From contig CBDATS010000008.1 of assembly GCA_965200245.1 (NCBI GenBank), forward strand, positions 288,001-352,000: a stretch of DNA of 64,000 bases, in the 5' to 3' direction. Below the pieces are notes generated by a model. That model was not told the DNA's origin and did not search any database. It was given only the letters and a program-made list of their open reading frames with translations. The position numbers and the translations under genes were made by a program. The first letter of the stretch is position 1. Each line of letters begins with the position of its first letter. Source of the DNA: a bacterium (GTDB lineage Bacteria; UBA8248). Below are positions 3,452 to 44,486 of the stretch, one piece after another.

Positions 3452-4419
3452 ATGGCGCAAGAGGCTCACGCATCAAGAGAAGCTGCCACTCCTCAAGGGC
3501 GGCAATCGGCTTATAACGTACTGGTTCGCTTCGGCCCAGTCATCGGGCTCGCGTTCCTGTGTCTTGTTCTCTCCGTTACGTCCGAAGCCTTCCTGAACCC
3601 GGCGAACTTGATCAATGTCGCTCGCCAAGTCTCCATCAACGCCATCATCGCTGCTGGCATGACGTTCGTCATGATCTCGGGCGGGTTCGACCTATCGGTT
3701 GGCTCCGTCATGGCACTCTCGGGCGTGGTGGGCATCATGGCGATGAATGCCTTCGGTGACGCGGCGGGAATCCTGATCATGTTGGCCGTTGCCCTTTCCT
3801 GTGGCCTTTGGAACGGTCTGCTCGTCGCCTTCGCGCGCATCAACGCCTTTGTGGCCACGCTTGCCGGGATGACCATCTACCACGGCATCGCGCTCGTGGT
3901 GACAGACTCGTTTCCTGTCACGCGCTTCGGGGGCTGGTACCGCAACTTCGGCTAGGGGCACCTCTTCGGGCTGCCGATTCCGATCTACGTTCTCATCATC
4001 GTCTATGTCGTCGCCCACATCGTGCTGACGCGCCGTCGGTCTACGCCGTGGGCGGGAACGAGGAGGCCGCCCGCCTCTCGGGCATCAACGTGGAGCGCAT
4101 CCGCACGTCGGTATTCACCATATGCGGCTTCGGCGTGGGTATCGCCTCGCTTCTGATCATCGGGCGGTTGCAGTCCGCGCAGGCGAACATGGGCATTCAG
4201 GCTGAACTTGACGCCATCGCTGCTGTCGTCATCGGCGGTACGAGCCTCGCAGGTGGGGAGGGGCGTGTATTCGGAACCCTTGCGGGCGCCTTCACCATCG
4301 GGGTTTTAAACAACGGTCTGAACCTACATGACATCAGTGCACACTGGCAGCTTGTGGCCAAGGGCGTCGTCATTGCGCTCGCCGTTATCATTGATCGCCA
4401 ACTCGTGCACAGACAGTGA
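3452..4419 (+). pseudogene. rbsC: Ribose-type sugar ABC permease, disrupted
   Basis: N-half has AAGMTFVMISGGFDLSVG; in-frame TAG at 3953-3955; read-through gives GHLFGLPIPIYVLIIVYVVAHIVLTR; frameshift/deletion at ~4033-4035; C-half YAVGGNEEAARLSG...ELDAIAAVVIGGTSLAGGEG is in another frame. Confidence 0.88.
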
Positions 4420-4423
4420 GCAG

Positions 4424-5929
4424 ATGTCGGCGATGTTAACGATGGAAGGAATATCCAAGGCATTTCTGGGTGTCCAGGTGCTCTCGAAAGTCGATTTCGA
4501 GGTCATGCACGGCGAGGTGCACGCCTTGATCGGAGAAAACGGAGCGGGCAAGTCCACACTCATCAAGATACTCGCGGGTGTCCACCGGAGCGATGCAGGA
4601 ACGATACGCTTCGAGGGAAACGACTATAACGCCACCAATCCACATGAAGCGCTGGCGATGGGTGTAGCCGTCATCTACCAGGAATTGAACCTCGTCCAGA
4701 AGCTTACGGTGGCACAGAACATCTTCCTGGGCCATGAGCCCCTGCGACGTGCGGGTTTCGTCGCCACCCGTGAGATGAACTTGCGCGCCGGAGAAATCCT
4801 GAAAAAACTTGGTATCTCGATCGACCCGCGCACCCAGGTTGAGGAACTAGGTGTCGCCCAGAAGCAGATGGTAGAAATCGCAAAGGCGCTCTCTCGCGCT
4901 TCGCGCATCCTCGTGATGGACGAACCCACCGCTCCCCTCACGCAGAGCGAGATCGAGGTTCTCTTCCGCGTCATTGCAGGCTTGAAAGAAGAGGGAATGG
5001 GAATCATCTACATCTCGCACCGCCTTGATGAGGTTTTCCAGATTGCCGATCGCGTCACAGTGCTGCGCGACGGTGAGCGGGTGCATTCGAGTGAAGTACC
5101 CGAGACGCGGATCGACGAACTCGTCCTTGCGATGGTGGGTCGTCGCCTCGCCGAGGTGGAACCCCCACTTGATGTTCCTGAAGATGCGCCCGTGGTGCTC
5201 GAAGCGGATGATCTGGCTGATGGGAGGGTGGTGCAGGGCATCTCTCTGCAGGTGAGGGCGGGCGAGGTGGTTGGCCTGGCGGGACTCATCGGCTCGGGGC
5301 GCAGCGAGTTCGCGCACCTGCTCTTTGGTTCGGCAGCAGCAAGGGGTGGCGAGACACGCTTGTCGGGCAAGATGCTGAGTGGTGGCATCCCCCAGCGGAT
5401 CGCCGACGGTGTCGGCATGGTGCCTGAAGATCGGAAGCTCCAGGGGCTCGTGATGCAACTCCTCGTCAAGGAGAACAGCACGCTCGCCACGCTCGATAAG
5501 TACACGAACGGCGGATTTGTCCGACGCCTGGCTCACGAATCCCGCGTGCGAGAGATCATCGCGGAACTTCGCATCGCAACACGTGGGCCACGCCAGCCCG
5601 TCAAAATGCTGAGCGGGGGCAACCAGCAGAAAGTCATCCTCTCGCGCTGGATGGATACCGGCGCCCGCGCGCTCATCTTCGACGAACCCACGCGCGGAGT
5701 GGATGTGGGTGCCAAGGCGGAAATCTACGCCCTCATCCGGGAGTTGCAAAAACGTGGCGTCGCCATACTGATGATCAGTTCGGACCTGCCCGAGGTGCTG
5801 CGGATCAGCAACCGGGTCATTGTCATCAGGAACGGGCGCGTCGCGGGGGAACTTTCCCGCGATGAAGCCACTCAAGAGAACGTTTTGCGGCTCATGATGG
5901 GAGCCGCCGTATCGGGCAGAAGAGTCTAA
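4424..5929 (+). CDS. rbsA: Sugar ABC transporter ATP-binding protein (RbsA/MglA family, two NBDs)
   Basis: GENGAGKST, MDEPT, YISHRL, PEDRK, LSGGNQQKV, DEPTRGVDVGAK. Confidence 0.93.
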   Translation: MSAMLTMEGISKAFLGVQVLSKVDFEVMHGEVHALIGENGAGKSTLIKILAGVHRSDAGTIRFEGNDYNATNPHEALAMGVAVIYQELNLVQKLTVAQNIFLGHEPLRRAGFVATREMNLRAGEILKKLGISIDPRTQVEELGVAQKQMVEIAKALSRASRILVMDEPTAPLTQSEIEVLFRVIAGLKEEGMGIIYISHRLDEVFQIADRVTVLRDGERVHSSEVPETRIDELVLAMVGRRLAEVEPPLDVPEDAPVVLEADDLADGRVVQGISLQVRAGEVVGLAGLIGSGRSEFAHLLFGSAAARGGETRLSGKMLSGGIPQRIADGVGMVPEDRKLQGLVMQLLVKENSTLATLDKYTNGGFVRRLAHESRVREIIAELRIATRGPRQPVKMLSGGNQQKVILSRWMDTGARALIFDEPTRGVDVGAKAEIYALIRELQKRGVAILMISSDLPEVLRISNRVIVIRNGRVAGELSRDEATQENVLRLMMGAAVSGRRV

Positions 5930-5961
5930 ATGTAAAACCCTAACCAATGGAGGAACAAGCC

Positions 5962-7066: not shown

Positions 7067-7297
7067 GTGGATCAAACAGATGTGAACCAGTACCTCTGTA
7101 TGTTTCGTCGGGAGCAGCCCAAGTATCCTTCCCGCAAGGCGCGAACTACCCTGCTATTCGACACCTGTACCGGCGATTTTAAGGTAGCATCCGCACACAA
7201 GGAGGATTATCTTACAGGGAAGGGTATATTACAGGTGGCGAATGTCACCACGCGACAGGAAGCGCATCTTCCCTGGCTGGTTGTGGGAATCGAGTGA
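7067..7297 (+). CDS. Small hypothetical protein
   Basis: Open frame with GTG preceded by GAGAGG; no recognisable motif. Confidence 0.3.
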   Translation: MDQTDVNQYLCMFRREQPKYPSRKARTTLLFDTCTGDFKVASAHKEDYLTGKGILQVANVTTRQEAHLPWLVVGIE

Positions 7298-7331
7298 GAC
7301 GAGAGAAGCCACCTTACGTGGAGGGTAGACG

Positions 7332-7760
7332 TTGTTCCCAATTCCCTGGGATGCACGCAGCGACGCGGGCGTTTTCCTGTTCAACCAGGGGGAATACTGG
7401 TACGCGCACGAGGCGTGGGAGGGAATATGGATGAACGCGGAGCCAGTGCCCAAAAAATTCTACCAAGGCCTCATCCAACTCGCCGCGGGCTACGTGAAAC
7501 TCCAGCAACGTCACTACAAGGGAGCACTCGCCAACTTGAAGAAAGGCCTCGAGCGATTCCGCGAAGTCGATGAGGCTGTGGGCGATCTCGACGTACCGAT
7601 TCTTTACAAGAAACTCGTGAACCAATCGCGCGGAGTGCGCGTGAGCCTGATCGATCAGGGAGAGATGCGCGTACTCGCCCACGCTTGGGATTTATGGCCG
7701 AAAATCGAATACGTCGCCGACGCGCAACGCAATTCGGTTTCCCACTCGCCGCTGGCCTGA
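7332..7760 (+). CDS. DUF309 domain protein
   Basis: FNQGEYWYAHEAWE..W and YQGLIQLAAG family signatures. Confidence 0.85.
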   Translation: MFPIPWDARSDAGVFLFNQGEYWYAHEAWEGIWMNAEPVPKKFYQGLIQLAAGYVKLQQRHYKGALANLKKGLERFREVDEAVGDLDVPILYKKLVNQSRGVRVSLIDQGEMRVLAHAWDLWPKIEYVADAQRNSVSHSPLA

Positions 7761-7769
7761 GGATGAGAG

Positions 7770-8324
7770 ATGAAACGTCTTGTTTTTTGCATTACCATGC
7801 TGGTTTTTCTGGGCGGATGCGGGGGTTTTGAGCTGAGCGACTCCCCGTTCCAGCGAATCACCCGCACCCAACAGAAGGATAGTTATCTGGTGGCCGTTCA
7901 GGCCAGGTTGGTTCCCACTTACTGGCATGTGTTCTCCCCATTCAGTCCCGAGGAGGCCGAAGTGCGTGAAGCCGCCTGCAAGGGATTGTCGTTCGCTCCC
8001 CGGTTCCGCTGCGTTCGGACGAACAAGGTCGGTGCTCTTCTGGAGAAACCCGACTATGTCGTCCAAATCGAGTACGATGTAGTTGAAACGAAACACTTCT
8101 TCCGAAGCCGATATTTTCGAAGCGTGCTCGTGAATGACTCCCGGGGTGATAGGGATGTTGAAGGAGACGACGTAGGTGATGCCAACTACGAGGTGCGCTG
8201 GGGTTTTCGGGTGATAAAGGCCAGCGGGTCCAAGCCGGTGTTCCAGAGTATTTTCCGCGAAGAAAGCCTCGATACTTGGAGTTTCGACGTCGAGCAGTGG
8301 ATGGAACGCTATTTTTCGGAGTGA
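7770..8324 (+). CDS. Hypothetical lipoprotein
   Basis: MKR + hydrophobic stretch + lipobox LGGC; GAGGA RBS. Confidence 0.7.
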   Translation: MKRLVFCITMLVFLGGCGGFELSDSPFQRITRTQQKDSYLVAVQARLVPTYWHVFSPFSPEEAEVREAACKGLSFAPRFRCVRTNKVGALLEKPDYVVQIEYDVVETKHFFRSRYFRSVLVNDSRGDRDVEGDDVGDANYEVRWGFRVIKASGSKPVFQSIFREESLDTWSFDVEQWMERYFSE

Positions 8325-8865
8325 ATCTGCATCAGACGGTTCTGGATTATCCGTGGAGGATTGATCCTCTCGGGCGAGTCGGTGGTCGGACGTATTTCCG
8401 GCCTACCTTGGCCCGTTAGGGCGCATCATCTGGCAACTGGAATGAAGGCGGGCCGCTTGAGGTGCTCACCGCTTTTCCTCGCGCATGACGGCGCTGGGCA
8501 ACGCCGTGTAGGCGTGCGGAATAACCCTCTCCTTGTTCTTGCGTGCCTTCGGCAAACACGCACTCTGGTCGGGCAGCATGTGATCTCACGAAGATAGAAA
8601 CGCCCCCGCCCATGGACCCACGCGGGACGCGTATTTCCCCGCATTTGTGATTGCCGGTTTTTTACGACTCGGGCGAGAATCCTTCGCGCGAAATTCCTGA
8701 AAATTGTCAATCTACGAATCGCTGCTCACCCCGTTATAACCACGGCACGAACGATCAGGTTCGTCAGTAGTTCCACTTGTATACGCTGGAGTTCAGATGA
8801 GCCGGTTTCGTATTCATCACAAATTGAAAAAGACGGGTTAAAAACGAGACTCAAAATGAAGGCTG

Positions 8866-27614: not shown

Positions 27615-28103
27615 CTAGAAGAGCCAGTCCTGCGGCAGGGGCACCTTCAGCAAATGGTGAAATACGTAGTTCACCGCCAAGGCGAAAACGACGACATAGG
27701 GGAGTGTGATTTTCCAGGAACGGATACCGCTCCACCGTATGGAGACGAAGAGAAACACGGCGACCGCGGCGCTAAAACCGATGTATTGCATCAAGAGCGC
27801 CAGGCCCGCCAGGAGGAGACAGAGGATCAAGGCGTCGAGAACACCTTTTCGCTCGATAACAACGATGTGCTCGCTCTTTCGGGATACGCAGAGAAGGTCC
27901 ACCCCCAGATCGACCAGTGTCAGGACGATGAGCAACGAAGCCCAGAGCCAAGGAATAAAAGAAGGCCCCAAGGGACCTTCTTCCCCCGGTCCCTGGGGCA
28001 ACTCCAGAATGATCGAACCATACCAGACGTAAAAAACCACCAAAAGGATCGGGACGAGGAGGCGTTCAACGCGCAACCTGATTTTTTTGTTCTCCCCCGT
28101 CAT
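27615..28103 (-). CDS. tctB: Tripartite tricarboxylate transporter small membrane subunit
   Basis: Four TM segments, LGPSFIP, VF..LLKVPLP; between tctC and tctA. Confidence 0.88.
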   Translation of the reverse strand: MTGENKKIRLRVERLLVPILLVVFYVWYGSIILELPQGPGEEGPLGPSFIPWLWASLLIVLTLVDLGVDLLCVSRKSEHIVVIERKGVLDALILCLLLAGLALLMQYIGFSAAVAVFLFVSIRWSGIRSWKITLPYVVVFALAVNYVFHHLLKVPLPQDWLF

Positions 28104-28157
28104 GAACACCGAATCCCTTGCCCTCGCGACATTTCTGCCTCGGCGCGATTCAGAAGT

Positions 28158-29120
28158 CTACTTCTTCTTTTTCTTCTTCTTGTCCAGACCCAGCGAAACG
28201 ACGATCTCCTTGATCAGGGCATTTTGTTTGGCCACAAAGGCCGGGAATTTGTCCGGTCCCATGTAGGAGACCAGGAAACCTCGCTTCTCGGCGGTGGCCA
28301 GGACTTTCGGATCCTTTGCAGCAGCAGAGAATGCCTGGTGAAGTTTTTGAACCGCCTCTTTGGGCGTTCCCTTGGGAACGTGCAGTCCACGGAACTGATA
28401 GAAGCCGACGTCCCACCCATGCTCGCTGAACAGGGGAACCTTGGGATATGCCGGATGGCGTTTCGGGAACGAAACGGCCAGCATGCGTACCTTGCCCGCT
28501 TTGTGCAGGGCCAGCACCTCAGGCGGATGGACGGAAATCGCGTCGACCTCGCCTCCAAGCAGGCTGGGCACACGGCGCTTGCCCAGGGGAACATGACGGA
28601 ACTTGAAGCCTGCCTTTTTGGCCAGTGCCGAAGCCGTAAGCCGTGTGAAACTGCCCGAACCAGCGCTTCCGATCTTGAGCGTCTTCGATTTGGCCGCCTT
28701 CACGAGGTCGGGAAGCGTCTTGAAAGGAGAATCTCCCCGCACGACGATGGCGGTTGCCTCGAACACCACGCGGGAAACGTAGTCCCAGGCGCGGTAGTCA
28801 TACGGCAGGCGCCCCATGTTCGTGCCGGTCAGGATCGAGGCCGAAAGCCAGCCGATCTTGTACCCGTCGGCAGGTGCGGTCTTGATGTACGCGAAGCCGA
28901 TCGTGCCACCGGCTCCCGGACGGTTCACGGCGACGATGGGCTGCCCGAATACTTTTTCGGCCGCTTTCGCCACGGTGCGGCCGGAGATGTCCGCAGCGCC
29001 TCCGGCCTTGAAGGTGATGGTCATCTCTACGGGTTTCGTCGGGTAGGCGGCCGAGGCGGGCGCAACCGAAAACCCCGCGACGGCGAAGGCGAGTGCGAAT
29101 ACCAGCAAAAACTTCTTCAT
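28158..29120 (-). CDS. tctC: Tripartite tricarboxylate transporter substrate-binding protein (Bug/TctC)
   Basis: YPTKPV, AGGAADISGR, NRPGAGGTIG, ADGY, PKGTP; signal peptide. Confidence 0.93.
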   Translation of the reverse strand: MKKFLLVFALAFAVAGFSVAPASAAYPTKPVEMTITFKAGGAADISGRTVAKAAEKVFGQPIVAVNRPGAGGTIGFAYIKTAPADGYKIGWLSASILTGTNMGRLPYDYRAWDYVSRVVFEATAIVVRGDSPFKTLPDLVKAAKSKTLKIGSAGSGSFTRLTASALAKKAGFKFRHVPLGKRRVPSLLGGEVDAISVHPPEVLALHKAGKVRMLAVSFPKRHPAYPKVPLFSEHGWDVGFYQFRGLHVPKGTPKEAVQKLHQAFSAAAKDPKVLATAEKRGFLVSYMGPDKFPAFVAKQNALIKEIVVSLGLDKKKKKKK

Positions 29121-29162
29121 GGGGAATCCTCCTTGAAATACGTCGGAACTAACGAAATCAGC

Positions 29163-30671
29163 TTAATCACGATTCCAGGAATGCCACCGCGAAAGTCCGA
29201 TGCAGACGCTTTTCACCTGCGTGTATTCGCGCAGCGCCTCCTCGCCATGCTCCCTGCCGATGCCGCTTTTCTTGACGCCGCCGAAGGGGATCTCGGAACC
29301 GTAGCGGTAGGTGTTGATGAACACGTTTCCACAGTCGAGTTCCGCAGCGAGTCGATGCGCCCGTCGCAGGTCACTCGTCCAGATGTAGCTCGCCAGACCG
29401 AATTCCGTGGCGTTCGCATCCCGGACTGCATCATCCAGGGAATCGAATTCGTGCACAGTAAGAACGGGGCCGAAAATCTCCTCGCACGCCGCCCGCATAC
29501 CCTGATTCACGCCTGTGAGCACCGTGGGCTGTATGAAGTTTCCGCCCGGCTCTCCCTCGGCTGCAGGACGACCACCACCACAGGCGACGCACGCCCCGTC
29601 ACTGAGCGCCGATTCGACATAGCCGACTACGTGGGCGAGATGATCGCGGGATATAAGCGGCCCCATGTCGGTCTCTGCATCCATCGCGTCGCCAACGCGA
29701 ATTCTCTTGACGCGTTCGACAATTTTCTCGACGAACACATCATGAATACCGCTCGGCAGAAACAGGCGGGTTCCGGCGAAACAGACTTCACCCTGGCGGG
29801 CAAACACCTGGCTCAGCACACCGTCTGCGGCTTCTTCCAAATCGGCGTCCTCGCAAACGATGATGGGCCCCTTGCCGCCAAGCTCCGCCAGCACCGGGGT
29901 CACGTTCTGCGCAGCGAGTCCCAGGACTTCCAAGCCGCCCTCGGTGCCGCCCGTAAAGACGATCTTTCTGATATCAGGATGGCCTACGATCTTGGCGCCT
30001 GTCGAGCGCCCCGAACCCGCAACGATGTTGATCACCCCTGGCGGGAACCCGGCGTCTTCCACCAGTTTTCCGAAATAAAGCACCGAGGCCAGAGCGACGG
30101 CGGAGGGCTTGATGATCACGGTGTTGCCGCAGGCCAGAGCAGCGGCCAGCCCCCGTGACATGAGTTTGAGCGGGGTGTTCCAGGGAACGATGATGGCCAC
30201 GACACCCAAAGGTTCCCGTATCGAATACATGAGGCGATCGTTCATCAATGGCTGCGCGCCGCCTTCCAGCTTGCCGGCCCAACCGGCGAAATACTCGAAA
30301 TGGCGCGCGGAAGAGGCGGATTCCAGGCGGCTTTCCCGAATGGGGATACCCGTGTTTATCGCTTCCAGCCTCGCGAGTGTTTCCGATTGTTCGCGCATCA
30401 GCGCCGCGAGTTTCATGATGAGTTTCCCGCGCTCAAGTGCGGGCATCTTCTTCCAGGACGCATCGTGATACGCCCGCCAGCAGGAGGCGACAGCCTCATC
30501 AACCTGCGCATCCGAGGCGGGGAACAACTGGAATATCGTCTCGTTGTTTGAGGGGTTGAGCACGTCTATCGGCTCGCCACGCTCGCCTTTGACCCAGACG
30601 CCGTCGATTAATTGTTGTTCCACTTCCTGGGTGAGTGGAAACTCGGTCACTTTCACCAGACTACCTGACAT
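29163..30671 (-). CDS. Aldehyde dehydrogenase
   Basis: PWN, IKPS, FTGG, ELGGK, GEVC, EEIFGPV, PFGGVKKSGIGRE. Confidence 0.95.
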   Translation of the reverse strand: MSGSLVKVTEFPLTQEVEQQLIDGVWVKGERGEPIDVLNPSNNETIFQLFPASDAQVDEAVASCWRAYHDASWKKMPALERGKLIMKLAALMREQSETLARLEAINTGIPIRESRLESASSARHFEYFAGWAGKLEGGAQPLMNDRLMYSIREPLGVVAIIVPWNTPLKLMSRGLAAALACGNTVIIKPSAVALASVLYFGKLVEDAGFPPGVINIVAGSGRSTGAKIVGHPDIRKIVFTGGTEGGLEVLGLAAQNVTPVLAELGGKGPIIVCEDADLEEAADGVLSQVFARQGEVCFAGTRLFLPSGIHDVFVEKIVERVKRIRVGDAMDAETDMGPLISRDHLAHVVGYVESALSDGACVACGGGRPAAEGEPGGNFIQPTVLTGVNQGMRAACEEIFGPVLTVHEFDSLDDAVRDANATEFGLASYIWTSDLRRAHRLAAELDCGNVFINTYRYGSEIPFGGVKKSGIGREHGEEALREYTQVKSVCIGLSRWHSWNRD

Positions 30672-30722
30672 CAAAACTCCTTTGGGTTAACGAAAATATC
30701 GGTCAGACACCTGCGCCCGGAC

Positions 30723-35914: not shown

Positions 35915-37135
35915 CTATTTCCGGCAGCCTTGGCCCGTGTTCTCGTCGGGATGAGAACCCTCGACAGGAGATATTACCTGGATGTTCGAGAGAACCGGGA
36001 AAGGATATTCCTTGTTTTTCGAGATGACGCCCCAGAAGCTCGACTGCCAGCCCTGGTGGTCGGAGGGACGCATGATGATCCAACCCTCGGGAGCGTTGAA
36101 GGCGACACCGCCCATCGCGTCTATCGCCTTCTCCTTGTTCACGGTGCCCGCGCGGCGGATGGATTCCGCAATCACATGGACAGTCGAATATGCTTCACCG
36201 GCCGTCATGTCAGGATATACGTTGTACGCCTTGCGGAAGCTGTCCACGAAACGCTTGTTGTTCGCGGAAACCGGATAGTTGTGCAGATAGCGCGAACTTG
36301 CCCAGTGACCGTATGGTGCCTGATCGCCCAGCGCCTTGAGAACTACGTGGTTGCCGCCGAAATCGGTGAAAATCTTCACCTTCTCGTACATCCCGAATGA
36401 GCGGGCCTGCTTCATGAACTTGATGAGGTCCGCGCCGAACAGGCCTACGTAGATGGCGTCGGGCTCCGCTTTGAGCATCTTGTTAATGTAGGCGGAATAA
36501 TCATTCTCGCCCAGTTTTGGCCAGGCCGCGTAGGGGCGCTGCGCCTTGGGGTCGCGTTCTTTCAGATAGTTCCAGAACTGCCGGATGACGGAGCGGCCGT
36601 ATGAGAAATCAGACGAAATAGTCGCCCATTTCTTATAACCCAGACGATGGGCGATGACGGCACCCGCTCGCGAGGTCTGCTGCGCGCTGCTTCCTACGCG
36701 CCAGGTGTAACGGCTACAGAATTTCGTGTTGATCTCCTCGGTCGCCGCCCAGGGGAAATTCATTGTCTTGAGTTTCTTCGATTCCTGCAAGACGGCAATG
36801 GCCGCTCCCCCGTGCAAAGGCCCCAAGAGGGCGAAAACCTTGTCACGCAGAATCAGGCGCCGCGCCGTTCGCACCGAACTCGCTGGGTTGGTCTCCGAAT
36901 CCCGGATCAGTGCCTCGAACTTGTGGCCCAAAACACCGCCTGAGTCGTTGATTTCCTTGACGGCGAGGTTGATGCCCTGACTCGTTCTTTTCCCGACGAT
37001 GGAATACAGGCCCGTCAACGGAGAGAGAACGCCTATCTTGATCGTTTTCGCCGCAAACGAGGTGTTAGGACCCGATGCAGCAAGCGCCAGTGCCATCACT
37101 GTGGTGATGAGCGCCTTTTTCCGGAAACTGGACAT
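35915..37135 (-). CDS. Branched-chain amino acid-type ABC substrate-binding protein
   Basis: Signal peptide, IKIGVLSPLTG, AVKEIN..GGVLG, DFSYG. Confidence 0.92.
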   Translation of the reverse strand: MSSFRKKALITTVMALALAASGPNTSFAAKTIKIGVLSPLTGLYSIVGKRTSQGINLAVKEINDSGGVLGHKFEALIRDSETNPASSVRTARRLILRDKVFALLGPLHGGAAIAVLQESKKLKTMNFPWAATEEINTKFCSRYTWRVGSSAQQTSRAGAVIAHRLGYKKWATISSDFSYGRSVIRQFWNYLKERDPKAQRPYAAWPKLGENDYSAYINKMLKAEPDAIYVGLFGADLIKFMKQARSFGMYEKVKIFTDFGGNHVVLKALGDQAPYGHWASSRYLHNYPVSANNKRFVDSFRKAYNVYPDMTAGEAYSTVHVIAESIRRAGTVNKEKAIDAMGGVAFNAPEGWIIMRPSDHQGWQSSFWGVISKNKEYPFPVLSNIQVISPVEGSHPDENTGQGCRK

Positions 37136-37394
37136 GAGAAATCCCCCTGGAAGATGGAAAGATGCAGATCCGCACTGCCGGAATCGAATCCATTGCGGAT
37201 CCGACACCTGGAGCAAGTGTATATTCGAGTTCAGCATAGGAAGCAGGTTAGATAAGCCTCGATTCGGAGTCAAGGCCGCCTTTTTCGCGCCAAAAGTCCG
37301 CATTGTACTCATGGCGGGGGAATCGGCACGGCTTGATTTTCCGTATCCCGTGAACAGGCGACAACGCTCGGTTCCTTCTGGAGGACGCTCCGGC

Positions 37395-38492
37395 TCAGGA
37401 ATATCCCGGCTCATCCTCAGAAGTCGCGTAGAAGCGGAAGTAGGCGAGGGCAGCATATGCTTTCGCCTCGATGTGGTCGTCTTGAATCGTCAGCTTGACG
37501 TGGTTGATTCCCTTGTAGAGGATGGACATGCCTTTTTCCTCGAAAATCCTCTCGACCGCCGGGAAGTCGCGCAGACCTTCGCCCTTCTCAGGCAAACACC
37601 ATCGCATCTGTTCTAGGTAGTCCAACACGGAACTCCAGGCGTTGCGCCCCGACGTCAACCAGTAATTGAGGTTCGAGGGTTGTCTCGGCCTGTACATATC
37701 GAGTCCCAGGCGCGGCCCTACGCCGTCTGCACCGACATCGGACGACAGGCGGAAGATCGGTGTCAGATGGTGCATCTCTTCTATGATGTCCATCACCTTC
37801 TGGGTGGGGCCGTCCCATTTCAGGCGCTTCAGGAAAGCGGGTACGTTGCGCTGCTTCAGGTCATCGATGACGAGTCGAATATAGCGCGGTTCGCGCTCGG
37901 CCACGGCACCTATCTGGTCCACCACGCCGCTACGGGGCAGGGCGGCGAAGACGCGCTCCACGGCGATTCGCTCCTTCTCGTTCTCGTTCCAGCCGACGGC
38001 GCTCGCGACGGCGGCGGCCAGATTGTCGGGGGTTCGCTCGCGTGCAGTTTGTTCGTCGAGTTCAGTTTGCGGCTTGAGTGCCAGAAACACACCAGGGGCC
38101 AGGTGCCGTCCCGGAGGGACTTTCACGATGTCATATCCGAGCATCGACGCACGAAACCAGCCTGCCAGAGAGGGTTCAGAAGGGGGTCCCATCCCTTTTA
38201 TTCGGGAATAGGCCCGGCTCAGGGCCACCTCGGAAGCGTTGGCTCCCGTTTCCTCGCCACGGCGGATGAAATACTCCATGGAGGAACGCCCTGGCTCAAG
38301 CGAGACGAAATAATCGGCCGCAGGTTCAGGTTCGTTCAGCCGGAACTCGAATGCCGCGTAGTTCAAAGTCAGCCAACTGGGCAGGTCGCCGACGCGCTCC
38401 AGCAGGCACCCCCACCACGGGTCGTCCAGCAAGGTGGGGGGAATGAAGCGACGCAGCCTTGGGAAAGCATCTCCGAAACTCTCAGACATCAT
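37395..38492 (-). CDS. Uncharacterised ~365-aa soluble protein; candidate RiPP maturase (possible aromatic prenyltransferase fold)
   Basis: Directly downstream of and co-oriented with NHLP precursors; motifs FEFRL..ADY, LGYD, QIG..RE...IRL, DV...GVGPRLGLD, NHVKL...EAKAY; gene is well supported, function is inference. Confidence 0.7.
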   Translation of the reverse strand: MMSESFGDAFPRLRRFIPPTLLDDPWWGCLLERVGDLPSWLTLNYAAFEFRLNEPEPAADYFVSLEPGRSSMEYFIRRGEETGANASEVALSRAYSRIKGMGPPSEPSLAGWFRASMLGYDIVKVPPGRHLAPGVFLALKPQTELDEQTARERTPDNLAAAVASAVGWNENEKERIAVERVFAALPRSGVVDQIGAVAEREPRYIRLVIDDLKQRNVPAFLKRLKWDGPTQKVMDIIEEMHHLTPIFRLSSDVGADGVGPRLGLDMYRPRQPSNLNYWLTSGRNAWSSVLDYLEQMRWCLPEKGEGLRDFPAVERIFEEKGMSILYKGINHVKLTIQDDHIEAKAYAALAYFRFYATSEDEPGYS

Positions 38493-38697
38493 CGAACCCT
38501 GTTTCTTTGTCGGTAGGATACACGGTATTCGAGGCGGTGATGAGCGAACATTGCTATCGGATCTCCCTTCCACGAAGGACCGAAAATACGCTCAAACCCG
38601 CATGCCAAGAGTCCGAACAAAGTCCCTTTCGTGGATTTTGGCAGACCGAACGGGCAGACAGTTAAACTGTTTTGTTTGATATAGCCTATCGAGAGTT

Positions 38698-38976
38698 TTA
38701 GCTCAAGCTGTTCCATGCGTTGATGAAATTCGCATATGCCTGTGTGCCAGCCGCGACGGCGCTCAACTCCGCCTCGCTCAACTCGGAAGGTGGCAAGACG
38801 AGGTTGAAACTCATGATGCCGTCTTGATGCACACTGATTTGGAACTCCTCGGGAATGGCAACTCCCAACTCCCGCTCCATAGCGGCCTTTGGGTCAGCTA
38901 TTAGCTCGGTGCGGAACGCTTCGTTCTCACTGGCTTTTTTTGCGATTATCTCGCGAACTTCGTCTCCGGTTTTCAT
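38698..38976 (-). CDS. NHLP-leader (nitrile hydratase-like) RiPP precursor; core TQAYANFINAWNSLS
   Basis: I..KA....FR..L.ADPKAA...ELG..IP....I.VH......LVLPP..ELSEAEL.AVAAG leader; GGAG RBS. Confidence 0.92.
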   Translation of the reverse strand: MKTGDEVREIIAKKASENEAFRTELIADPKAAMERELGVAIPEEFQISVHQDGIMSFNLVLPPSELSEAELSAVAAGTQAYANFINAWNSLS

Positions 38977-39347
38977 TGTCTTGAAATCTCCAGATAGCAT
39001 TCGACCGGAAAGGATACTTGAGTCTTCCTTCCTGATTCAGGCAAAGTATAAAATATTGGCGGTTCGGGTTCAACCATATTCCATGCGTTAACGGAATTCG
39101 CAAATGCCTGCGTGCCAGCCAAGTTGGTCCTCAACTTCGCCTCGCTCAACTCGGCCCGCGTCAATACGAAATTGATGATCAAGGTACCGTCTTGATGCAC
39201 GCTGAACTGGAGCACCTCGGGAATGGCAATTCCCAACTCGCGCTGCATGGCGACCTTGGGGTACACCTGCAATGCGGCGCGGAACGTCTCATTTGAGACG
39301 ACCTTGCGAACGATTTCTTCCCACACTCCTTCCAAAGTTTTCACCAC
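38973..39347 (-). CDS. Second, divergent NHLP-leader precursor; core begins TQAFANSVNAWNM, C-terminal extension (possibly decaying)
   Basis: Colinear with first precursor (RELGIAIPE, SVHQDG, ELSEA..LAG|TQA.AN..NAWN); conserved leader residues changed (DPK to YPK, LPP to LTR, EL to KL). Confidence 0.75.
   Translation of the reverse strand: MVKTLEGVWEEIVRKVVSNETFRAALQVYPKVAMQRELGIAIPEVLQFSVHQDGTLIINFVLTRAELSEAKLRTNLAGTQAFANSVNAWNMVEPEPPIFYTLPESGRKTQVSFPVECYLEISRQ
39045..39073 (-). promoter_or_regulatory. Sigma70-like promoter for the intact precursor
   Basis: Minus strand TTGAAC-17 nt-TATACT. Confidence 0.5.
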
Positions 39348-39484: not shown

Positions 39485-39512
39485 AGTATATGCGTAGCGT
39501 TCGCTTCGTCAA
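39485..39512 (-). promoter_or_regulatory. Sigma70-like promoter upstream of the RiPP locus
   Basis: Minus strand TTGACG-16 nt-TATACT in AT-rich divergent region. Confidence 0.55.
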
Positions 39513-42394: not shown

Positions 42395-42856
42395 ATGAGG
42401 AGATATTCACGTAATTTGGCTACTTACAAGATACTCATGGTGGACGACGAACCCGATCTCGAAGGTCTCGTGAGTCAGCGCATGCGGCGTGAGATACGAC
42501 GGGGCCTCTATTCGTTCGTATTCGCGCGCAACGGGGCCGAGGCACTCGAGCTGCTGAACGGGGACGATGAAATCGACATCGTCATCACCGACATCAACAT
42601 GCCGGAGATGGATGGCCTCACGCTGCTTGAGCAAATTCCCGCATACGACCCCAAGGTCCGCTGCGTAATCGTTTCCGCCTACGGGGACATGAAGAACATC
42701 CGCACGGCGATGAACCGGGGTGCGTTCGATTTTCTCAACAAACCGATTGATTTCGAGGACCTGCGTCAAACCATCGGCAAGACCGTCGAGCACATCATAA
42801 AAGTCCGGGAGATGTTTGAGGTACGTGGCAGGATGCTGACGGAGGGCGGATCATAG
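42395..42856 (+). CDS. Single-domain response regulator
   Basis: ILMVDDE, TDINMPEMDG, SAYG, KP. Confidence 0.9.
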   Translation: MRRYSRNLATYKILMVDDEPDLEGLVSQRMRREIRRGLYSFVFARNGAEALELLNGDDEIDIVITDINMPEMDGLTLLEQIPAYDPKVRCVIVSAYGDMKNIRTAMNRGAFDFLNKPIDFEDLRQTIGKTVEHIIKVREMFEVRGRMLTEGGS

Positions 42857-44070
42857 TGGAAGAGTCGCACAAGATACTAGTTGTGGATGACGAACCCGAT
42901 CTCGAAGACCTCGTGAAACAGCGCATGCGACGCGAGATACGGCGGGGCCGCTATTCGTTCATATTCGCGCGCAACGGGGCCGAGGCACTTGAGTGCTTGA
43001 GCGATGACAAAGACGGCCATTCCATCGACATGGTGCTCACCGATATCAATATGCCGGTAATGGACGGTCTCACGCTGCTCAAGCAAATTCCATTGGTCGA
43101 CCCCAACATACGTTCGGTGGTCGTCTCCGCCTACGGAGATATGGAAAATATCCGCACAGCGATGAACCGGGGTGCGTTCGACTTCGTCACCAAGCCGATC
43201 GATTTCGAGGATTTGCGGATCACCATCGAGCGGACCCTAGAACATCTCGCCATGCTTCGCGAAGCCCTTGAGGCGCGCGACAAGCTGGTCGCGATCAAGA
43301 GTGACCTTGCTCTGGCCAACAAGATGCAGCAGTCGATTCTAACGACCAAATTTCCAGAGGACTCCAACTTCGAAATATTCGCAGGTATGGTGCCGGCCAG
43401 AGACGTGGGGGGCGATTTCTACGACATAATCGATCTTGGCGATGGCCGCATCAGCGTCACTGTCGCTGACGTTTCGGGCAAGGGAGTGCCCGCCGCGCTT
43501 TTCATGATGTCGAGCTACATGCTGCTCAACAGCGTCACCGTTACGCGCGTGGATTCGGGCAAGGAACTCGGCGAGGTGAATCGTTTTTTACAACCCGGCG
43601 ACGTGCTCCGTGAGGTGAACCGGCGGCTTGAGGAAAACAACGACGCCGGGATGTTTGTCACGGTTTTCCTCTTGTTTTTTGATTCCGCGACAGGAGAAAT
43701 AGTATATGCCAATGGTGGCCACAACCCCCCGGTCATTATTCACGCCGATGGTTCCTCAAGCCTTCTTGCCGAGCAGCCGGGAGTGGCCTTGGGGATTGTG
43801 GCCGAGTTCAACTACGACATGTACAACGCAACTCTCGCGCCCGGCGAGGCTCTCATTCTCTATACCGACGGAGTAACGGAGGCGGAGAACGAGAAGACCG
43901 AGCAGTTTGGCCTTGATCGCCTTCAAGGGATTCTCGGAGGCGCATCACCGATCTCCGCCAGAGAGATCAACACCAAGGTTTTCGAGGCGGTCAACGAATT
44001 TGCTGGCAGTGCGCCCCAATTCGATGATGTCACCTGTCTGACCATTTTCCGCCGTGGTGAGAGCGAATGA
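42856..44070 (+). CDS. Response regulator receiver + SpoIIE/RsbU-type PP2C phosphatase
   Basis: REC domain, then VGGDFYD, ADVSGKG, MFVT, NGGH, YTDGVTEA, DDVT. Confidence 0.94.
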   Translation: MEESHKILVVDDEPDLEDLVKQRMRREIRRGRYSFIFARNGAEALECLSDDKDGHSIDMVLTDINMPVMDGLTLLKQIPLVDPNIRSVVVSAYGDMENIRTAMNRGAFDFVTKPIDFEDLRITIERTLEHLAMLREALEARDKLVAIKSDLALANKMQQSILTTKFPEDSNFEIFAGMVPARDVGGDFYDIIDLGDGRISVTVADVSGKGVPAALFMMSSYMLLNSVTVTRVDSGKELGEVNRFLQPGDVLREVNRRLEENNDAGMFVTVFLLFFDSATGEIVYANGGHNPPVIIHADGSSSLLAEQPGVALGIVAEFNYDMYNATLAPGEALILYTDGVTEAENEKTEQFGLDRLQGILGGASPISAREINTKVFEAVNEFAGSAPQFDDVTCLTIFRRGESE

Positions 44071-44486
44071 GCGCGAAACTTTCATTGACCATGGGGTTCG
44101 AACCCTCGGAACTCCCACAAGTTCAGTCCGCCATCAGTGAGTTCAGCCGAGAGCAGGAGTGGACGTCCGACATCGAATTCCAGGTTGACCTCGTGATCGA
44201 AGAATTGCTCCTGAACGTCGTGAACCACGGCAGCGACGGGGGAGACAATGAGATCAGCCTCGAACTCATCTCGGATGACGATGTGGTGATCATAGAGATC
44301 ATCGACGACGGCAAACCCTTCAACCCACTGACCGACGCGCCCGAACCGGACACAGAATCGGACATCGAAGATCGCGCCGTGGGTGGGCTTGGCATCCATC
44401 TGGTGCTGACGATGATGGACGAGGTGACCTGTCGGCGGGAGAAGGACAGGAACCATATGCGCCTCGTCAAGTTGAGGAACAAATGA
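44067..44486 (+). CDS. RsbW/SpoIIAB-type anti-sigma factor kinase (HATPase_c_2)
   Basis: EELLLNVVNHG, DDGKPFNP, GGLGIHLV..MD. Confidence 0.92.
   Translation: MSAKLSLTMGFEPSELPQVQSAISEFSREQEWTSDIEFQVDLVIEELLLNVVNHGSDGGDNEISLELISDDDVVIIEIIDDGKPFNPLTDAPEPDTESDIEDRAVGGLGIHLVLTMMDEVTCRREKDRNHMRLVKLRNK

Follow-up and report, generated by a model that had tools for sequence, protein, structure and literature searches.

To our knowledge, few peptide prenyltransferases have been described, these being the cyanobactin F-type enzymes, ComQ/PalQ, MppC and NctPC/ChrPC. Prenylation makes peptides lipophilic and often bioactive, and it is already known that ribosomal peptides are prenylated by enzymes with the prenyltransferase (PT) barrel fold (cyanobactin F-type, MppC, NctPC). 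The PT barrel, also called the ABBA fold, is a ten-stranded antiparallel beta-barrel made up of five alpha-alpha-beta-beta repeats. The current study concerns a gene, here called the maturase gene, in a 64,000 nt stretch of DNA from a bacterium of the UBA8248 lineage (assembly GCA_965200245.1, contig CBDATS010000008.1, positions 288,001 to 352,000). This whole stretch is referred to as the window, and coordinates of features within it are counted from its first nucleotide (Table 1). In the best explanation of the data, the maturase represents a branch of the ABBA (PT-barrel) enzymes that is distinct in sequence and without annotation, and is the sole maturase of a minimal locus for a peptide made on ribosomes and modified after its translation (RiPP), where it is accompanied by two precursors with NHLP-type leaders.

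NctPC, from a 'steromaze'-type terpene-RiPP pathway, was reportedly described by Hubrich et al. (Chem, 2024). According to the review PMC13290415, it is a prenyltransferase-cyclase fusion that transfers a geranylgeranyl (C20) group onto Trp, after which cyclisation occurs. Two features of the maturase family recall this enzyme. One relative, P0205, has the same domain order (a PT part followed by an MstE-like cyclase), and a separate cyclase-like gene is found in 14 of 68 related loci, described below. The maturase itself differs in being a stand-alone protein of 365 aa with no extra domain, and hence not a fusion, and there is no cyclase in the 64-kb window. MppC is a soluble ABBA prenyltransferase that specifically geranylates the C5 position of the Trp indole in a Nif11-leader lanthipeptide; it requires the whole leader in cis and a core that has been lanthionine-cyclised by LanM (PMC12715784). 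The locus in the window is similar to the extent that a predicted ABBA prenyltransferase occurs with a ribosomal precursor carrying a long, structured leader of the Nif11/NHLP class. It is not of the MppC type, as no LanM was found among the 36 larger open reading frames (ORFs) of the window that were scanned, and the core (TQAYANFINAWNSLS) lacks Cys. The maturase matches no Pfam or NCBIfam model.

The cyanobactin F family (PagF, LimF, KgpF) has in common with the maturase the PT-barrel fold and, apparently, peptide substrates, and KgpF prenylates Trp according to a review. Members of this family need no leader, and their substrates are cores, for the most part macrocyclic, that have already been released by proteolysis; the enzymes are encoded together with PatA/PatG-type proteases (PMC12715784). 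In contrast, the window precursor is of the NHLP type, its core is linear, and no PatA/PatG-type or subtilisin-like protease is present among the 36 scanned ORFs, which places the locus outside the cyanobactin pathways. Cyanobactin F-family enzymes were also absent among the structural matches listed for the maturase (best 50 of 73, see below). The best of these matches are the DMATS/ABBA indole prenyltransferases (PriB, IptA, TleC, CymD, FgaPT2) and the Orf2/NphB/CloQ enzymes, which share the five-repeat barrel and, with the maturase as interpreted here, an indole acceptor. Their substrates are free amino acids or small molecules and not leader-bearing peptides, and they show no detectable sequence similarity to the maturase and a template modelling (TM) score of only about 0.5.

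PalQ and ComQ prenylate Trp in ribosomal peptides, and the C-terminal Trp on which PalQ acts (as given in a review) recalls the 65 of 142 cores of the maturase family that end in Trp. Both have a trans-isoprenyl diphosphate synthase-like, all-alpha isoprenoid-synthase fold with Asp-rich motifs. As this is quite different from a PT barrel, any likeness must be convergent. The srp proteusins, as described in bioRxiv 10.1101/2023.06.09.544420, have NHLP precursors and an LCCCW core, of which the terminal Trp is brominated. NHLP leaders are common to both systems, and the C-terminal Trp is the residue modified in srp, but srp clusters encode a YcaO cyclodehydratase and a flavin halogenase and have a conserved Cys-rich core, whereas the cores considered here are hypervariable and Cys-poor and their partner is a PT-barrel protein. 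A cluster of the srp type was rejected, since neither a YcaO protein nor a halogenase was found among the 36 scanned ORFs and the core is not rich in Cys. No description of a PT-barrel enzyme paired with NHLP precursors was found by full-text searches of open-access papers aimed at this pairing, which returned MppC, the srp proteusins and reviews. What differs here is a family without a model or a name, consisting of stand-alone enzymes paired only with NHLP precursors, with linear, hypervariable cores in which Trp is the sole fixed feature, and with arrays of precursors and enzyme paralogues in metagenome-assembled genomes labelled with many phyla.

Fold and sequence family of the maturase

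The structure of the maturase was predicted with AlphaFold2, using an alignment of 25 relatives (A1) as input. The best model has a mean predicted local distance difference test score (pLDDT) of 88.6 and a predicted TM score (pTM) of 0.88, and the five models range in pLDDT from 86.9 to 88.6. Three N-terminal helices are followed by five strand pairs (residues 46-51/59-65, 113-120/134-139, 190-196/205-210, 246-254/257-267 and 321-337/340-355), with helices after each pair, i.e. (beta-beta-alpha-alpha)x5. A Foldseek search of the model against the PDB returned 73 matches at E<=0.001, and the best 50, which were listed, are all ABBA aromatic prenyltransferases with a probability of 1.00 throughout. 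The best match is PriB (5jxm, E 1.3e-6), and the list also contains IptA, TleC, AmbP1, Orf2/NphB, AnaPT, CymD, CloQ, AmbP3, CdpNPT, FamD1 and 5- and 6-DMATS enzymes. As judged from the predicted structure, the maturase is a member of the ABBA/PT-barrel superfamily by its structural definition.

A preliminary description of this DNA, made from the sequence alone, had noted the alternating helix/strand pattern of the protein, had proposed the PT-barrel fold by eye, with a non-barrel model named as the result that would speak against it, and had listed a series of short motifs as possibly conserved. The pattern and the fold are both borne out by the model, and the motifs are all present and lie on invariant or >=90% conserved columns of A1. 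They comprise FEFRL (conserved E49, F50, R51, L52), ADY (A59, D60), LGYD (L118, Y120, D121), QIG..R (G195, R200), IRL (R206, L207), DV..GPRLGLD (D252, G257, P260, R261, G263), NHVKL (N330, H331, K333, L334) and EAKAY (A343, K344, A345, Y346). The same description had assigned the protein to no family and had noted the absence of a Cys cluster and of Rossmann or ATP-binding motifs, which agrees with the absence of any above-threshold Pfam or NCBIfam match at E<=1; no family was found for the 25 distant relatives either, and the only name that any source gives is 'hypothetical protein'. The ORF that it had marked is also real, and encodes, on the reverse strand, 365 aa from the ATG at 38492.

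A larger alignment of 78 sequences (A2), with a mean column identity of 29%, retains most of these positions. Y346 is invariant in it, and E49, D60, D121, G195, R200, R206, G263, H331, K333 and K344 are at least 90% conserved. In the model, the conserved R51, R200, R206, R261, H331, K333, K344, Y120 and Y346 are on or beside predicted barrel strands, and the conserved polar residues as a whole are spread over strands 1-3 and 5-10. Strand 1 carries E49 and R51, and strand 2 D60. Strand 3 carries E119 and Y120, with D121 directly past its end, while strand 4 has only the conserved G134 and L137. G195 and R200 fall on strand 5 and the loop between strands 5 and 6, R206 is on strand 6, D252 on strand 7, R261 and G263 on strand 8, H331 and K333 on strand 9, and K344 and Y346 on strand 10. 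Such a distribution is what would be expected of an active site within the barrel lumen, toward which these side chains would point in the model.

The stop codon of the maturase gene occupies nt 37395-37397, and translation could begin at the ATG at 38492 or that at 38489. The M(M)SE position is where the homologues begin, and the gene as marked, from 38492, is the likely one. A GTG at 38573 would give a protein of 392 aa, with 27 extra residues, and was judged less likely. In searches of Pfam and NCBIfam at E<=1, the only matches to the maturase were a sub-threshold DUF3088 (13.7 bits against a cut-off of 26.4), which is a chance match, and WcaI (12.9 bits against a cut-off of 800), which is meaningless. 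The families PF11991 (Trp_DMAT), PF11468 (PTase_Orf2) and PF19156 (DUF5838) and the prenyltransferase models of NCBIfam did not match at this level, and prenyltransferase families were likewise unmatched by the 25 distant relatives (Pfam, E<=0.1). When profiles built from A1 and A2 were run against 177,635 distinct PDB sequences, no prenyltransferase was recovered, the best matches (E 1.5 and 0.32) being to unrelated proteins.

The family to which the maturase belongs is nonetheless large. At E<=0.001 it comprises 821 clusters at 50% identity; 262 of these still qualify when the threshold is tightened to E<=1e-10, and 82 when it is set to E<=1e-30. Among its neighbours in a protein language model, those with names carry PF11991 (75% of members), PF11468 and PF19156, at scores of 0.88-0.89 that can serve as a lead only. 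No longer, fused forms of the family were found among proteins of 696-2000 aa, which is weak evidence. The possibility that the gene is an antisense artefact was rejected on the grounds of 33 database relatives, flanking genes common to 13 of the 68 related loci, and the confident fold prediction. The relatives recovered when 5.8 billion proteins were searched with the A2 profile all lack annotation, the exceptions being P0204 and P0205, both of them odd ORFs. The first of these (530 aa) consists of a divergent family domain joined to a C-terminal NHLP-type precursor (...LEAVAGGVEPVPPPSW, with Trp as the last residue), and may be either a true enzyme-substrate fusion or a read-through gene call. 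It forms a very long branch in the enzyme tree. The second is described with the terpene cyclases.

Precursor peptides, related loci and the recurrent tryptophan

Precursor 1 matches the NHLP leader model TIGR03793 (E 2.7e-17; 62.4 bits, above the cut-off of 50.9) and has a Gly-Gly-type cleavage motif (AVAAG) in front of a short core, and so can be classed as an NHLP precursor. To collect loci of the same kind, a single genome from each species was scanned with a pattern. A total of 147 stretches matched, 93 of them encode a relative of the maturase, and the 80 that were kept represent 68 distinct loci. All are from metagenome-assembled genomes (MAGs), and their labels cover at least nine phyla: Nitrospinota, Alpha- and Gammaproteobacteria, Binatia, Spirochaetia, Dehalococcoidia/Chloroflexota, Vicinamibacterales/Acidobacteria, Gemmatimonadetes and Acidimicrobiia. 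Together they encode 91 family genes, with up to four in a locus. Searches by tblastn with precursor 1 found NHLP precursors beside the enzyme in 67 of the 68 loci, and in 52 a same-strand precursor ends not more than 400 nt upstream of the enzyme gene. The median number of precursor ORFs per locus is 2, and the maximum 12.

In a quick tree of the 91 enzymes, with SH-aLRT support values, the maturase falls in a fully supported clade of 14 rows, together with sequences labelled Nitrospinota or simply 'bacterium', and is the deepest branch there, at an identity of no more than 72%. The same pairing of precursor and enzyme, with the permease and DUF3105 genes on its flanks, occurs in 13 related MAG loci at 68-73% protein identity; these have one precursor each, compared to two in the window. 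Elsewhere in the tree, sequences with Binatia, Alpha-/Gammaproteobacteria, Spirochaetia and Acidobacteria labels are intermingled within subclades of good support, and a single genome may hold as many as four paralogues. To go by this branching pattern, the cassette appears to have undergone repeated horizontal transfer and duplication.

From the related loci, 224 precursor ORFs were extracted, and 192 could be split by pattern at the end of the leader, giving 144 unique cores; 142 of these do not exceed 60 aa. The other 32 ORFs were dropped (over-long, containing a stop codon, or not fitting the pattern), and these included 11 of the 13 from the window's own clade. Trp makes up 8.83% of core residues in the 142 unique cores (201/2277), against 0.06% of the leader residues of the same peptides (7/11481). 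It is present in 130 of the 142 cores and is the last residue in 65. Either Trp or Tyr is present in 140, and 10 cores have Tyr without Trp. In all other respects the cores are hypervariable, so that Trp is the one feature that recurs across the 68 loci.

Within the window's clade, where 12 precursors were aligned, the only invariant core positions are A-W-N, corresponding to A10-W11-N12 of precursor 1, while the position of Tyr4 is occupied by Y, F, W, M or P. Trp11 is therefore favoured over Tyr4 as the modified residue. The numbering of these two residues, which was introduced in the preliminary description, is correct if the leader is cleaved after ...AVAAG, and its suggestion that a prenyltransferase would fit a core containing Trp and Tyr is strengthened, as regards Trp, by the recurrence of this residue across the related loci and the invariant A-W-N of the clade.

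A peptide prenyltransferase acting on some other residue, by O-prenylation of Tyr4, at the freed N-terminus, or on a Ser, Thr or Asn side chain, would be consistent with the same fold evidence. Cyanobactin F-type enzymes do prenylate varied nucleophiles, and the number of cores with Trp or Tyr, as well as the 10 that have Tyr without Trp, could be cited in its favour. We consider it quite unlikely, since it is Trp and not Tyr that is enriched and so often terminal, and the variable Tyr4 position stands against an A-W-N that does not vary.

Terpene cyclase-like proteins among relatives and the proposed reaction

The ORF P0205 (461 aa) is cut at its N-terminus, and its first ~130 residues correspond to the C-terminal part of the maturase family, with the motifs GPRLGLE, NHVKLTY and AKAY. 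This part matches the A2 profile at E 5.2e-10, and is 33% identical to P0001 (E 2e-12) over the last 129 alignment columns. Beyond this part, the protein is similar to MstE (6sbb), a class II terpene cyclase with a single domain (E 6.3e-54); the MstE-like domain had no tblastn match in the 68 related loci or the window. In a further sequence, P0116, the end of a cyclase-like protein precedes a full maturase-family domain. This fragment led to a cyclase-like neighbour of ~320 aa, encoded in L027, L028, L031, L032, L033, L036, L039, L041, L043, L045, L046, L049, L054 and L065 (an example is given in Table 1). Of these, L043 also encodes a precursor (nt 5667-5951) and the enzyme (from about nt 5902).

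At the sequence level, the cyclase-like neighbour has only sub-threshold matches to models of squalene-hopene cyclase (SHC). Its AlphaFold2 model has a pLDDT of 88.5 and a pTM of 0.89 (pLDDT of the other four models, 66.9-87.7), and the best Foldseek match is drimenol synthase (9m7f_B; E 5.2e-12, query-normalised TM score 0.77, root-mean-square deviation 3.2 Å), followed by monodomain SHC-like cyclases, MstE, drimenyl diphosphate synthase and SHC. Two Asp residues, D101 and D103, are invariant and lie within PPDLDSLS, PPDADDTS or PDLDDT, which constitute a DxD(D/S) motif. DxDD is the acid motif of class II terpene cyclases, and MstE has DADT at the aligned site. The neighbour differs from the MstE-like domain of P0205 and belongs to another, more distant family. 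According to the model, it is probably a new family of monodomain peptide-terpene cyclases. Queries with the cyclase sequences found nothing in the 64-kb window.

A terpene cyclase needs a prenylated substrate, and the association with cyclases is therefore the strongest contextual argument for prenyl transfer by the maturase family. That the maturase is a peptide prenyltransferase, whatever its acceptor, is considered likely. The best explanation of the locus goes one step further, and takes the maturase to be a stand-alone, probably leader-dependent peptide Trp prenyltransferase with Trp11 of TQAYANFINAWNSLS as its acceptor, which we hold to be probable, though with some reserve as to catalysis, donor and site. 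In the lineages that have cyclases, at least, the prenyl groups are probably C15 or longer.

A possible course of the reaction is as follows; prenyl transfer itself, leader dependence and the roles of the residues are what we infer, as are the chain length of the donor, the modified atom and the regiochemistry. The structured NHLP leader of ~85 aa would dock on the enzyme surface, by analogy with the leader-dependent MppC, and the short linear core would enter the open end of the ten-stranded barrel. There, a prenyl diphosphate could be held in the centre by R51, R200/R206, R261, H331/K333 and K344 and be shielded by the conserved tyrosines Y120 and Y346, while E49, D60, E119/D121 and D252 might bind Mg2+ and/or form a hydrogen bond with the indole NH. 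Ionisation would yield an allylic cation, and this would alkylate the invariant Trp (Trp11 of TQAYANFINAWNSLS) at its indole. Removal of the leader at AAG|T would follow, the probable agent being a C39-peptidase ABC exporter whose gene lies at some other place in the genome.

Several results count against the proposed function. The structural likeness to solved enzymes is only moderate (query-normalised TM scores of 0.40-0.52, root-mean-square deviations of 7-9 Å and identities of 8-15% in the Foldseek rows listed), and the maturase must therefore be a distant member of the fold, with none of the solved enzymes closely related to it. By sequence comparison it is without a tie to any characterised prenyltransferase, and the kinship of its family to NctPC is deduced from matching architecture only. 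No prenyl-diphosphate synthase, terpene cyclase or C39 exporter is present among the 36 larger ORFs of the window that were scanned. The core counts stem from related sequences rather than independent events, and binomial p-values calculated from them overstate independence, though the Trp effect is still very large. Lastly, 12 of the 142 cores are without Trp, most of them having Tyr. It follows that some family members act on something else or that those peptides are unmodified, and family members need not all share one acceptor.

These points leave some room for a PT barrel that has been recruited for other chemistry on the Trp core, such as the transfer of a non-isoprenoid alkyl or another diphosphate-activated group, or that serves as a non-catalytic scaffold or chaperone binding the leader. 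Inactive ABBA proteins have been reported, PatF being an example, and the profile searches of the PDB revealed no sequence similarity to any active prenyltransferase. The TM scores of only ~0.5 and the absence of isoprenoid genes among the 36 scanned ORFs are in keeping with such a role. The near-invariance of polar and charged residues on the barrel strands, in a family of only 29% mean column identity, favours catalysis over mere binding. The PDB look-alikes listed are, moreover, all prenyltransferases, and relatives adjoin or are fused to class II terpene cyclases, which depend on a prenylated substrate. Other chemistry, or none, is accordingly regarded as unlikely, and prenylation of the core Trp is retained as the preferred explanation.

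On a wider and more tentative view, about which our doubts slightly outweigh our confidence, leader-dependent PT-barrel enzymes would form a large family wholly without annotation (the 821 clusters, with 91 genes in the 68 loci sampled), which defines a new RiPP class and of which the maturase would be a stand-alone member. The products of this class would be linear proteusin-type peptides with a prenylated Trp, often C-terminal, as their sole fixed feature. They would be encoded in arrays that can comprise 12 hypervariable precursors at most, and the new monodomain class II cyclase would, in some lineages, convert them into cyclic terpene-peptide hybrids. If so, the interleaving of phyla in the quick tree would reflect a cassette moving horizontally among uncultured bacteria.

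Should the enzyme be active, it would be a sequence-distinct and very widespread addition to the peptide prenyltransferases, and a function would be provided for hundreds of 'hypothetical protein' clusters. An enzyme of this kind, which would accept highly variable linear cores with little requirement beyond Trp, and be steered by a large NHLP leader, would be attractive for the enzymatic lipidation of designed peptides. It would also mark many minimal loci, with precursor genes and a single enzyme gene as their whole content, which may escape rule-based detection of gene clusters for want of a family model for the enzyme. The cyclase-like neighbour would, for its part, widen the small group of terpene-RiPP hybrid pathways.

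Layout of the locus and additional observations

Table 1. Coordinates of the maturase locus in the window, and of a representative cyclase-like neighbour in a related locus
Feature	Position	Strand	Basis
Maturase gene, 365 aa, putative peptide Trp prenyltransferase	37395..38492	-	ORF, translation, homologue starts, model
Spacer between precursor 1 and maturase, 205 nt	38493..38697	-	Sequence reading
Precursor peptide 1, 100 aa, NHLP-type leader ending ...LVLPPSELSEAELSAVAAG, then 15-aa core TQAYANFINAWNSLS	38698..39000	-	TIGR03793
Core of precursor 1	38701-38745	-	
Trp11 codon of precursor 1	38713-38715	-	
Precursor peptide 2, 124 aa as ORF, diverged tandem copy, leader degraded (FVLTRAELSEAKLRTNLAG), core starting TQAFANSVNAWN	38973..39347	-	TIGR03793, sub-threshold
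Sigma-70-like promoter match (TTGACG, 16 nt, TATACT; 10/12), ~140 nt upstream of precursor 2	39485..39512	-	Consensus scan only
Cyclase-like neighbour in related locus L043, adjoins PT-barrel genes	4618-5577	+	Without Pfam family above cut-off

The two precursor genes and the maturase gene follow one another on the reverse strand. In a consensus scan, no terminator-like site was found on the minus strand of the spacer between precursor 1 and the maturase gene. A similar scan for promoters gave 3 sites compared to 1.3 +/- 1.2 in shuffled sequences, a result that says nothing on function; by its sequence, the match upstream of precursor 2 is a possible candidate for the operon promoter. Downstream of the maturase gene are genes for amino-acid uptake (an ABC system), for a luciferase-like oxygenase, for a transglutaminase-like protein and for an aldehyde dehydrogenase, while upstream, on the opposite strand, are those for a xanthine/uracil-type permease and a DUF3105 protein. 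No other RiPP enzyme was found among the 36 larger ORFs scanned. As these include neither another such enzyme nor an exporter, polyprenyl synthase or cyclase, the locus is a minimal one, consisting of the precursors and one enzyme.

Precursor 2 scores 31.1 bits against TIGR03793, which is under the cut-off of 50.9, and does not qualify as an NHLP precursor by this measure. It is 54% identical to precursor 1 in the clade alignment and retains A-W-N, but the end of its leader is degraded (LVLPP changed to FVLTR; LRTNLAG), and its frame continues for 34 residues (MVEPEPP...ISRQ) past A-W-N, overlapping the start of precursor 1. The degraded leader and read-through tail of this copy, and the absence of an exporter or peptidase among the 36 scanned ORFs, might point to decay or silence of the locus, with its enzyme and precursors left as remnants that yield no current product in this organism. 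Against this, the enzyme ORF is intact and has all of the residues that are invariant in the family, precursor 1 scores above the curated NHLP cut-off, and the precursor-enzyme pair and its flanks have been kept in the 13 related MAG loci of the clade, at the protein identities given above. Decay is considered very unlikely.

Some ORFs of the window need correction. The binding-protein ORF at nt 35915-37456 (- strand, 513 aa) is over-extended at its 5' end, as its Pfam domain begins only at residue 138 and a signal-peptide-like sequence (MSSFRKKALITT...) is internal, so that it does not truly overlap the maturase gene. An ORF of 834 aa (nt 27654-30158, + strand) lies partly antisense to the aldehyde dehydrogenase gene (nt 29163-30674, - strand) and is probably a spurious frame. 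At nt 42395-44486 (+ strand), genes for a response regulator, a response-regulator-SpoIIE phosphatase and an anti-sigma-type kinase (HATPase_c_2) occur in a row and constitute a partner-switching module. A gene for a periplasmic binding protein and another for a HAMP histidine kinase come next. No link between any of these genes and the maturase was seen.

Other genes accompany the enzyme in some of the 68 related loci, and the counts given here are approximate, being based on clusters of greedy ORF calls. C39-peptidase/ABC exporters are found in 25 loci and, as expected, fit the Gly-Gly-type leader cleavage of NHLP peptides. HlyD-type proteins are found in 11 loci, JmjC-domain proteins in 9, FAD_binding_4 plus cytokinin-dehydrogenase-like oxidases in 5, and methyltransferases in 5. 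The JmjC/cupin-domain protein (PF08007, E 1.2e-23), which is encoded near PT-barrel genes (e.g. L046, nt 3764-5317), may be a peptide hydroxylase and so a further tailoring enzyme. The FAD_binding_4 plus cytokinin-dehydrogenase-like oxidase adjoins the PT-barrel gene in L042, L052, L059, L066 and L068 (e.g. L068, nt 7081-8550). These five loci are all labelled Chloroflexota or Gemmatimonadetes, and their cores are often without Trp and have Tyr instead (VDVYPV, VDIYRV). Since cytokinin dehydrogenases oxidise N-isopentenyl groups, this oxidase may tailor the prenyl group.

Two ORFs, at nt 7112-7846 (+ strand) of L049 and nt 7181-7948 (+ strand) of L062, have an NHLP-type leader that is followed by a tail of ~160 aa beginning ...CFRPDALVRL, and have no short core. 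The tails show weak, sub-threshold matches to Hint_2 (16.9 and 17.3 bits; cut-off, 28.4), and both ORFs may represent a leader fused to an intein-like, self-cleaving domain.

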